A DNA stretch of 64,000 nt from Escherichia coli. Lineage in GTDB: Bacteria > Pseudomonadota > Gammaproteobacteria > Enterobacterales > Enterobacteriaceae. The translations under genes were made by a program, and so were the position numbers. A model generated the notes under the pieces. That model ran no database searches and was not told the DNA's origin. It worked only from the letters and a program-made list of their open reading frames with translations. Shown one piece after another: positions 24,040-26,515 of this stretch (position 1 is its first letter; the number at the start of each line of letters is the position of its first letter). The stretch is taken from assembly GCF_050920415.1 (NCBI RefSeq), contig NZ_CP169309.1; one strand, given 5' to 3'.

Positions 24040-24138
24040 GCCGGATGCGGCGTGAACGCCTTATCCGGCCTACAAAAATCTTGCCAATTCAATATATTGC
24101 AGGATAGTGTAGGCCTGATAAGCGTAGCGCATCAGGCA
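24040..24138. repeat. REP/BIME elements between fepA and entD
   Basis: tgccggatgcggcgtgaacgccttatccggcctac and gtaggcctgataagcgtagcgcatcaggca are two REP-consensus palindromes in opposite orientation. Confidence 0.7.
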
Positions 24139-24795: not shown

Positions 24796-24916
24796 TTGAC
24801 AACATCTGGTACGATTCGCCCGCAGCCATCACTGACCACGGGCGAAAGTGTAAAGCAGGTGCCTTACCATCCTGACCTGACAACCGGATATGCGGGGATT
24901 ACTCCCCGCACAACGG

Positions 24917-25069
24917 CTACTTCTTCGGTTCGTAAGCGAGAACAGCCCTGAACTCAATATTACGTTCCTTTACGGTGAACTCACACAGCGAGTCGCCGAC
25001 CAGAAGCGTAAATCCCAGCACTGTCAAACACAGCACTATGACCGCCACAAGGGCATATTTCGTCAGCAT
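24917..25069 (-). CDS. hokE: Hok-family membrane toxin, copy 1 (upstream frame fused in-frame by a 1-nt deletion)
   Basis: 50-aa [50 protein letters not shown] at the end of the 24917-25213 ORF; start codon at 25067-25069. Confidence 0.8.
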
Positions 25070-25418
25070 GTTTATATTGCCTCCATGCGAAGAAGGGACT
25101 ACCATCCAAATTGTCTGGTTTGGAGTGGCGGCCCCAGGGTTGATAGAAATATCTCCTGGGGCTTCATCTTTCCAGACCTCAGAGTTAACCTGAAACCGGA
25201 AAGCTTCAGGCACCCGCCGTTATCTTACCCTTCCTTAGCAAAATGGCTGTTTATTTATACAGTAAATCCTGTTCCGGACTTTTCATTAGTATTATCGCCC
25301 ATGCCAGTTAAACGACATCGCCCGCAGCCATCACTGACCACGGGCGAAAATGTAAAGCAGGTGCCTTACCACCCTGAACTGACAACCGGATATGCGGGGA
25401 TTACTCCCCGCACAACGG

Positions 25419-25571
25419 CTACTTCTTCGGTTCGTAAGCGAGAACAGCCCTGAACTCAATATTATGTTCCTTTACGGTGAACTCACACAGCGAGTCGCCG
25501 ACCAGAAGCGTAAATCCCAGCACTGTCAAACACAGCACTATGACCGCCACAAGGGCATATTTCGTCAGCAT
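25419..25571 (-). CDS. hokE: Hok-family membrane toxin, copy 2
   Basis: 50-aa [50 protein letters not shown]; an overlapping out-of-frame ORF (25483-25716) is in the position expected for mok. Confidence 0.8.
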
Positions 25572-25921
25572 GTTTATATTGCCTCCATGCGAAGAAGGGA
25601 CTACCATCCGAGTTGTTGAGGTTCGGAGTGGCAGCCCCAGGGTTGATAGAAATATCTCCTGGGGCTTCATCTTTCCAGACCTCAGAGTAAACCTGAAACC
25701 GGAAAGCTTCAGGCACCCGCCGTTATCTTACCCTTCCTTAGCAAAATGGCTGTTTATTTATACAGTGAGTCCTGTTTCGGACTTCTGTTGGCAAAACTGA
25801 TCATTGCTCTTAAAACGACATCGCCCGCAGCCATCACTGACCGCGGGCGAAAGTGTAAAGCAGGTGCCTTACCATCCTGACCTGACAACCGGATATGCGG
25901 GGATTACTCCCCGCACAACGG

Positions 25922-26074
25922 CTACTTCTTCGGTTCGTAAGCGAGAACAGCCTTAAACTCAATATTACGTTCCTTCACCGTAAACTCACACAGCGAGTCT
26001 CCGACCAGAACCGTAAATCCCAGCACCGTCAAACACAGCACTATGACTGCCACAAGGGCATATTTCGTCAGCAT
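25922..26074 (-). CDS. hokE: Hok-family membrane toxin, copy 3
   Basis: 50-aa [50 protein letters not shown]; overlapping out-of-frame mok-like ORF 25986-26219. Confidence 0.8.
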
Positions 26075-26515
26075 GTTTATATTGCCTCCATGCGAAGAAG
26101 GGACTACCATCCAAATTGTTTGGGTTTGGAGTGGCAGCCCCAGGGTTGATAGAAATATCTCCTGGGGCTTCATCTTTCCAGACCTCAGAGTAAACCTGAA
26201 ACCGGAAAGCTTCAGGCACCCGCCGTTATCTTACCCTTCCTCAACAAAATAGCTGTTTATTTATACAGTTAGTCTTATTTCGGACTTCTCACTACGCATC
26301 AGATCAACCGAAACTAAACCAATTTTTCCTTCGCCCCTCAATCGTCAAAATTCTCCGCCGCCAGCCAGCTCTGCCATAACTTGGCACATTGCAAAAGTAG
26401 CCAAATTGCTTCAGTAGCAATCAGTTCACCATCACCAAAAAAAGAAACATTCCAGAACTTCCGCATCTCTCCCGGCCGCTCCCACTTCTATACTCAAATG
26501 AAAACGCCAACATAA

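Follow-up and report, generated by a model that had tools for sequence, protein, structure and literature searches.

A tandem array of three diverged hokE/sokE units between entD and ybdK of Escherichia coli

Why does one interval of an Escherichia coli chromosome hold three hok toxin genes in a row, and is this a genuine, inherited arrangement in which each copy carries its own control elements? We asked this of a 64,000-nucleotide stretch of E. coli DNA (the window; contig NZ_CP169309.1 of assembly GCF_050920415.1), where three units of the hokE/sokE type I toxin-antitoxin locus lie head to tail at 24808-26315, with entD on one side and ybdK on the other. Our analysis indicates that the locus is very probably a genuine, vertically inherited array of three diverged hokE/sokE paralogues, each of them self-contained.

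Three diverged and inherited hokE/sokE units

A tandem triplication had originally been predicted at 24811-26290. A repeat search of the window together with a three-way alignment recovered the three copies, with start-to-start spacings of 502 and 503 nt, and the predicted position stood with a slightly wider true span. The units share 93-96% pairwise identity in the repeat search and have a mean column identity of 95% in the alignment. Tandem Repeats Finder gave no output for the array, its longest detectable period being 500, below the 502-503 of the repeat. The units are as follows.

24808-25309, minus strand: unit 1, on the entD side (direct-repeat families D1/D2 and three-way alignment)
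25310-25812, minus strand: unit 2, central (repeat search and three-way alignment)
25813-26315, minus strand: unit 3, on the ybdK side (repeat search and three-way alignment; placed by the tree with the single K-12-type copy)

At 100% identity, the window matches the chromosome of E. coli MFDS1022581 (NZ_CP169399.1), whose RefSeq annotation already lists hokE three times in the entD-ybdK interval and so confirms the predicted flanking genes. Matches to Rfam RF01794, to NCBIfam models and to Pfam HOK_GEF establish the units as hok/sok homologues. The Hok open reading frames (ORFs) are intact in all three units. They match Pfam PF01848 HOK_GEF over residues 5-46 (E 3.9e-8) and the NCBIfam HokA and Hok-family models with E values of 1e-10 to 1e-13, though under the curated cut-offs.

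24917-25069, minus strand: hokE coding sequence of unit 1, 50 aa (ORF list, Pfam HOK_GEF, NCBIfam Hok family; RefSeq WP_000956467.1, HokE)
25419-25571, minus strand: hokE coding sequence of unit 2, 50 aa, R36H relative to unit 1 (ORF list, NCBIfam; RefSeq WP_000956464.1)
25922-26074, minus strand: hokE coding sequence of unit 3, 50 aa, L22V and R41K relative to unit 1 (ORF list, NCBIfam; RefSeq WP_001354838.1)

The three proteins are 94-98% identical to one another and differ from K-12 HokE at 2, 3 and 2 of 50 residues (units 1, 2 and 3, respectively). Variation among them had been predicted at R/H35, T/V22 and R/K41; of these R41K was correct, and the other two changes are R36H and L22V. The hok ORFs of units 1 and 2 are separated from that of unit 3 by 7 synonymous and 2-3 replacement differences, which gives proportions of 0.185 for synonymous differences (pS) and 0.018-0.027 for replacement differences (pN); the two replacements between units 1 and 3 are conservative. 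Over all pairs of 30 units from 14 strains, pN/pS is approximately 0.10, and the toxin ORFs are thus under purifying selection. Units 1 and 2 have identical hok ORFs apart from one replacement, which suggests that this segment may have been subject to gene conversion or to a later duplication.

We then placed the 30 units in a neighbour-joining tree. Units 1, 2 and 3 of MFDS1022581, 2013C-4282, R32_14_1F and EC42405 formed three positional clades, and the ybdK-proximal units, K-12 and 0H25 fell into one group. The array is therefore inherited, with positionally orthologous units in these four strains. Tandem repeats of about 500 bp can be mis-assembled, and three copies could also reflect a very recent amplification in one strain. 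The probability of either explanation is nonetheless negligible. The units differ at 4-7% of positions, with the synonymous divergence of 0.185 separating units 1 and 2 from unit 3, and three units with their own diagnostic differences are found in 2013C-4282, R32_14_1F and EC42405. The annotations of WL297 and 2020CK-00188 likewise list three hokE copies, and each of the three Sok-target types in the window is common to other Escherichia species. The divergence of the units and the recurrence of unit-specific differences in independent complete genomes effectively refute an artefact, in agreement with the predicted evolved array.

LexA boxes, predicted hok mRNA and predicted Sok in each unit

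The description of the array that we started from did not include LexA boxes. A search for CTGT-N8-ACAG found exactly three sites in the 64 kb (25247, 25750 and 26253), one in each unit.

25245-25264, minus strand: LexA box of unit 1, TACTGTATAAATAAACAGCC (CTGT-N8-ACAG search)
25748-25767, minus strand: LexA box of unit 2, CACTGTATAAATAAACAGCC (CTGT-N8-ACAG search)
26251-26270, minus strand: LexA box of unit 3, AACTGTATAAATAAACAGCT (CTGT-N8-ACAG search)

Each box spans 20 nt and lies 27-46 nt 5' of an R1-like hok mRNA start, GGCGGGUGCC. All 30 units from the 14 strains, a K-12-like strain included, share the 16-nt core CTGTATAAATAAACAG without change, and a box occupies the equivalent position in other Escherichia species and in hokE-like loci of Citrobacter, Phytobacter and Pseudocitrobacter. 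Published work lists hokE as an SOS-induced Lex-box gene (PMC2826370, PMC1891008) with a LexA-box heterology index of 4.9 (PMC11228462). It was also among the genes up-regulated after ciprofloxacin (3.5 at 2 h) in enterohaemorrhagic E. coli (EHEC) EDL933 (PMC11125564), and the EHEC locus contains two uninterrupted hokE copies. Because the units carry LexA boxes, SOS induction is the likely physiological context of the array.

The predicted hok mRNA is approximately 400 nt long and would run from a 5' GGCGGGUGCC (GGCGGG) to a 3' hairpin. Its 5' ends are provisionally placed by homology to R1 hok: GGCGGGUGCC aligns with the 5' end of that mRNA. The Rfam matches begin 3 nt within GGCGGGUGCC.

24817-25218, minus strand: predicted full-length hokE mRNA of unit 1 (fold z = -7.5; Rfam sok match 25061-25215)
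25319-25721, minus strand: predicted full-length hokE mRNA of unit 2 (fold z = -6.3; Rfam match 25563-25718; terminator-like site)
25822-26224, minus strand: predicted full-length hokE mRNA of unit 3 (fold z = -6.9; Rfam match 26066-26221; terminator-like site)

The matches to RF01794, the model named 'sok' that describes the hok leader, cover its full length and score 81.8, 83.6 and 85.4 bits against a gathering score of 59; these three, one per unit, are the only ones in the 64 kb. In both minimum-free-energy and centroid folds an 11-bp helix joins the 5' and 3' regions in all three units (z = -6.3 to -7.5), the 3' partner being an fbi-like element.

24855-24865, 25357-25367 and 25860-25870, minus strand: fbi-like element AAGGCACCUGC, partner of the mRNA 5' end (folds)

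Such tac/fbi closure has been described for the R1 hok mRNA (PMC9841398). A terminal hairpin of 13-14 bp stands just downstream of AAGGCACCUGC, and the conserved 3' stem-loop that had been predicted (cgcccg...cgggcg) was found in every unit, at 24817-24844, 25319-25346 and 25822-25849. All 18 Escherichia and Citrobacter sequences in an alignment retain a 10-bp consensus of the closing helix; its changes are one-sided (G-C to G-U), except that the terminal pair is broken in the two Citrobacter sequences. The sokT hairpin, which is the Sok target in the hok leader, carries compensatory changes from A-U to G-C in the same alignment. The hok Shine-Dalgarno (SD) sequence and start codon are invariant across Escherichia species.

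On the opposite strand, each unit contains a promoter-like site that matches the consensus at 8 of 12 positions and overlaps the hok SD, followed approximately 64 nt downstream by a hairpin and U-run. The -35 element of the R1 sok promoter overlaps the hok SD in the same way. The candidate hok and sok promoters are placed by weaker matches and positional homology, and the Sok transcription start sites and the Sok RNAs themselves are likewise predictions.

25077-25175, plus strand: sokE of unit 1 (promoter-like TTGCCT-17-TACCAT at 25077-25105; predicted Sok at ~25112-25175; hairpin and U-run)
25579-25678, plus strand: sokE of unit 2 (promoter-like site at 25579-25607; predicted Sok at ~25614-25678)
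26082-26181, plus strand: sokE of unit 3 (promoter-like site at 26082-26110; predicted Sok at ~26117-26181)

RefSeq places pseudo-CDS entries ('hypothetical protein') at about 25039-25312 and 26044-26273 on the plus strand, opposite the hok leaders, with frameshifts or internal stops; the same frame is an intact coding sequence of about 89 aa in some strains. These calls, which overlie the sok region, are probably spurious.

Variation within the unit is greatest in a segment of about 30 nt that corresponds to the predicted Sok 5' tail and target hairpin. Its mean pairwise diversity is 0.12-0.17, compared with at most 0.10 elsewhere in the unit and about 0.11 at hok synonymous sites. The segment occurs as a few discrete types, which are common to E. 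coli and other Escherichia species, and units within one array nearly always differ in type. The window array has three different types, and the differences among its three predicted Sok RNAs are confined to the first 20 nt. One reading of this pattern is that co-resident units are long-maintained, mutually insulated Sok/hok pairs. We hold it only tentatively and consider it doubtful, because the sampled strains are not phylogenetically independent. The pattern is equally compatible with old paralogues that have diverged fastest where primary sequence is least constrained.

Upstream of hok, each unit also contains a leader ORF whose ATG has a GAGG 9 nt upstream. An overlapping mok-like frame had been predicted in every unit. 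In units 2 and 3 the candidate frame has 83 codons and is fused to hok; in unit 1 it ends after 22 codons.

25099-25167, minus strand: leader ORF of unit 1, 22 codons and then TAG (1-nt deletion, alignment columns 195-196)
25419-25670, minus strand: leader ORF of unit 2, 83 codons, in frame with hok (ORF list)
25922-26173, minus strand: leader ORF of unit 3, 83 codons, in frame with hok (ORF list)

The unit 1 frame falls 14 nt short of the hok SD and 29 nt short of the hok ATG. Three potentially active copies had been predicted, which the truncated leader of unit 1 qualifies. Units 2 and 3 look fully equipped as judged from their sequence. A second ATG, 36 nt 5' of hok, is invariant and in frame, and is the complement of the sok -10 element; its conservation is no proof of coding because the same bases form that -10. 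At two Citrobacter loci an upstream ATG at about 36 nt from hok opens a 12-codon ORF whose UGA overlaps the hok start (AUGCUGA), a classic arrangement for coupling. Escherichia differs from Citrobacter here by 4 nt, which places the second upstream ATG in frame with hok instead.

Codon 46 of each hok ORF is UAC followed by G, and the UUACGAA context matches the motif for TadA-type A-to-I editing.

24932-24934, 25434-25436 and 25937-25939, minus strand: codon 46, UAC then G, in the UUACGAA context (sequence match)

The UUACGAA context did not vary in any of the 18 sequences compared. Editing of hokE by TadA has been reported to change residue 46 from Tyr to Cys for a disulfide bond, and HokE of MG1655 served as a toxic control on overexpression in the same study (bioRxiv 10.1101/2025.08.07.668861). 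A local hairpin around the codon-46 UACG was no better than that of shuffled sequence (z = -1.07). In the Pseudocitrobacter faecalis homologue codon 46 is TGC (Cys), whereas the Escherichia and Citrobacter copies all have TAC-G (Tyr); the encoded cysteine agrees with the reported need for an edited Cys46.

Copy number and known relatives of the array

We next considered how common such an array is. Two systematic 'spread' samples were drawn from 5,426 complete E. coli genomes, and hokE copies were counted by the RefSeq annotation under the match. In the 118 sampled records, with the query genome excluded, three hokE copies were present in 2, two in 48, one in 66 and none in 2, so that approximately 41% of sampled E. 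coli have two copies, 56% one and 1-2% three. The two zero-copy records are one genome that ranked last in both samples. A third sample, for which the loci were fetched, added one further true three-copy genome in 59. The genomes seen with three hokE copies are nine: MFDS1022581, 2013C-4282, WL297, EC42405, R32_14_1F, 2020CK-00188, VTB97379v, GPEC996 and 21F61.

Other ways of counting were less informative. A junction of the unit 2/unit 3 type is intact in 2,133 of 5,426 genomes, a lower bound for genomes with at least two copies, and the window's own unit 1/unit 2 junction occurs in 3 of 5,426, which serves as a lineage marker or lower bound only. We rejected junction queries as a count of three-copy loci: the spacers are divergent, and megablast sees one junction even in known three-copy loci. 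The number of matching places per genome was also rejected, for it is inflated by units split by insertion sequences (IS). Five other sampled genomes had three such places, and of the four that were fetched GPEC996 truly has three copies, while AVS0247, ES7 and ECO-104 have one or two, split by IS. A query with the whole array could not separate two from three copies, as overlapping pieces join to 100% coverage. At least one genome in the E. coli set gave six separate matches to a single hokE unit, which may reflect a larger array or IS-fragmented units.

Beyond E. coli, two copies occupy the equivalent locus in E. whittamii, Escherichia sp. MOD1-EC7003 and strain SCPM-O-B-8794, and one copy in E. 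albertii and Escherichia sp. E1V33. Two hok homologues also lie 520-1,200 nt apart in other genera, for example in Klebsiella spallanzanii and Enterobacter sp. JUb54, with no LexA cores nearby. The multiplicity had been described as unusual for a chromosomal hok locus. Given that about 41% of sampled genomes have two copies, that the junction is present in 2,133 of 5,426 and that RefSeq already annotates three copies here, this description is only weakly true: three copies are uncommon and tandem copies are common. The array is an uncommon allele of an ordinary kind of locus that is already annotated and described.

The K-12 locus differs in its interruption. Just past the hok stop, each unit in the window contains an intact GGGG-N6-CCCC hairpin.

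24894-24907, 25396-25409 and 25899-25912, no strand assigned: GGGG-N6-CCCC hairpin, 11-22 nt past the hok stop, intact in all three units

In K-12-type strains an IS186/IS421-type element sits in this hairpin and splits the single hokE unit of the K-12-like locus at unit positions 88-99. The expected single hokE with an IS186 in K-12 was borne out by the single copy and adjoining IS186/IS421-type element of these strains. K-12 hokE/sokE shares with the array its chromosomal position, family, LexA core, leader, fbi-like element and 3' hairpin, and the proteins are 94-96% identical; it differs in being one unit whose ORF is parted from the fbi-like element and terminator by the IS. The array, in contrast, has three units, none of them interrupted, whose predicted Sok 5' tails differ. 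The entD-ybdK locus is an IS hot spot: some strains carry IS150 about 100 nt upstream of the hok start, and others, such as ES7, have two or three IS copies within one array. The left flank is not fixed, because short-chain dehydrogenase/reductase (SDR)-family oxidoreductase genes replace entD beside the array in GN06098 and AVS0247.

The plasmid R1 hok/mok/sok system resembles the array in its Hok/Gef toxin, its Rfam sok leader and a tac/fbi-type helix before a terminal hairpin, and its Sok, like that predicted here, is approximately 64 nt long with a free 5' tail and a terminator hairpin (mechanism in PMC9841398). In R1, mok starts within the Sok-target hairpin and overlaps hok out of frame, whereas hokE has no start codon there; its candidate leader ATG lies further upstream and is in frame with hok (units 2 and 3) or opens a truncated frame (unit 1). 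Unlike R1, hokE also has a LexA box and is chromosomal.

A 2026 preprint describes tandem hok copies as 'islets' of 2-6 copies that arise by local duplication and hold 10% of Hok genes, the share among chromosomal genes in Escherichia being 13.5%; an islet is defined as at least two hok homologues within 2 kb that belong to one 60%-identity cluster (bioRxiv 10.1101/2025.08.07.668861). With three ORFs 502-503 nt apart in one identity cluster, the array fits this definition. Tandem duplication is a general trait of type I loci (PMC2887945), and the ldr/rdl, ibs/sib and zorO/zorP duplications resemble the array in having homologous toxin/antisense modules head to tail in one intergenic region. 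The published accounts of tandem arrays (bioRxiv 10.1101/2025.08.07.668861, PMC2887945) give the hokE locus no separate treatment and make no mention of LexA boxes for each copy or of unit-specific Sok tails; the divergence of the Sok tails and the truncation of the unit 1 leader go beyond the accounts of hok arrays that we consulted. The tisB/istR-1, symE/symR and dinQ/agrB loci share with hokE the pairing of a LexA-repressed toxin with a constitutive RNA antitoxin (PMC2826370, PMC1891008) and differ from it in their unrelated toxin families and RNA mechanisms. The tisB, symE and dinQ loci are also not known to carry more than one copy of the toxin gene.

Three further features of the window lie outside the units. 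A 42-aa ORF (MRKFWNVSFFGDGELIATEAIW...) at 26338-26466 on the minus strand, between unit 3 and ybdK, is annotated in RefSeq as hypothetical protein WP_001225242.1 and has an annotated counterpart in strain VCSW7. An Rfam match to the small RNA ES036 (CssrF) is found at 24075-24116 on the plus strand (44.4 bits; gathering score 37.6), in the interval from the fepA end to the annotated entD start. A strong Rfam IS009 match (56030-56228, minus strand, 226.7 bits) is distant from the array.

Proposed function of the array and rival explanations

How would such units work? In the scheme that we favour, LexA would bind its box over the hok promoter region and repress hok, and DNA damage would induce transcription through the SOS response. 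The mRNA of about 400 nt would close through the 11-bp helix between its 5' end and the fbi-like element and, if it behaves like the message of plasmid R1 hok/sok, would be opened by slow trimming at its 3' end. The sok promoter within the unit would supply a Sok RNA of about 64 nt, which would pair with the leader, block translation and trigger decay. Hok translated from messages that escape would be a 50-aa membrane toxin, which reportedly reaches full HokE toxicity through A-to-I editing of codon 46. SOS induction of every copy, Sok expression and toxin activity are expectations of this scheme, as would be any dosage effect of three copies.

Several observations weigh against three working, self-contained units. 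A strict sigma-70 scan of both strands found no promoter, and the sok site fell under its cut-off. The chromosomal hokA, hokB and hokC loci mediated no post-segregational killing and were deemed inactive, according to earlier work as relayed in bioRxiv 10.1101/2025.08.07.668861, and K-12 hokE, a copy disrupted by IS186, was not induced by azidothymidine (0.47-fold in RNA-seq; PMC11228462). Premature stops in R1 mok upstream of hok abolish Hok translation (PMC9841398), and Hok of unit 1 may be poorly translated because its leader ORF ends before the hok SD. Two more points against a conserved leader, an offset between leader ATG and hok ATG that varies among the 30 units (98, 99 or 100 nt) and the missing leader ATG in Citrobacter homologues, also make this inference about unit 1 a weak one, as does the difficulty of recognizing mok, for which there is no reliable identification according to the authors of bioRxiv 10.1101/2025.08.07.668861. 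Thus, the units could be conserved-looking but physiologically silent relics whose copy number has no role. Such relics would fit the relayed failure of chromosomal hok loci to mediate killing, the lack of azidothymidine induction in K-12, leader-ORF frames that differ among units, the frequent IS186/IS421 and IS150 insertions that are tolerated at the locus, and the single copy in more than half of genomes. We nevertheless regard silent relics as unlikely. A hok pN/pS of about 0.1 amid many synonymous differences is not expected of them, and the LexA core, the hok SD and start, the codon-46 UACG and the fbi helix are invariant across Escherichia species. Moreover, HokE is toxic when overexpressed (bioRxiv 10.1101/2025.08.07.668861), and in EHEC, where both hokE copies are uninterrupted, the gene is on a published list of those up-regulated after ciprofloxacin exposure (PMC11125564).

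A role in stabilizing the neighbouring ent/fep region had also been proposed, in which the array would act as an addiction cassette that holds these siderophore genes by post-segregational killing. The proposal draws on the analogy with plasmid R1 hok/sok and on the position of the array next to entD-fepA, and it proved unsupported; we consider it highly improbable. The chromosomal hok loci that were tested showed no such killing in the relayed account, some strains have hokE beside SDR oxidoreductase genes instead of entD, and hokE copies range from 0 to 3 while ent/fep is kept. LexA control points to a damage response. An array of inherited, self-contained hokE/sokE paralogues, predicted to respond to damage, remains the explanation that we prefer.

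For annotation the gain is small, as the locus is known as hokE/sokE and its three copies are already annotated. The unit-specific Sok tails raise the question of whether there is cross-talk among the antisense RNAs of the paralogues. Should repression by each Sok be limited to its own hok, the array would comprise several independently thresholded SOS-triggered toxins and could give a graded or bet-hedging response to DNA damage. The K-12 reference, with its single, IS-disrupted copy, is atypical for hokE: about 40% of strains have two intact hokE copies that bear LexA boxes, and a few have three. Because the K-12 copy is single and disrupted and many strains have more intact copies, work in K-12 on SOS-induced toxins and fluoroquinolone persistence may underestimate the contribution of hokE in natural isolates.

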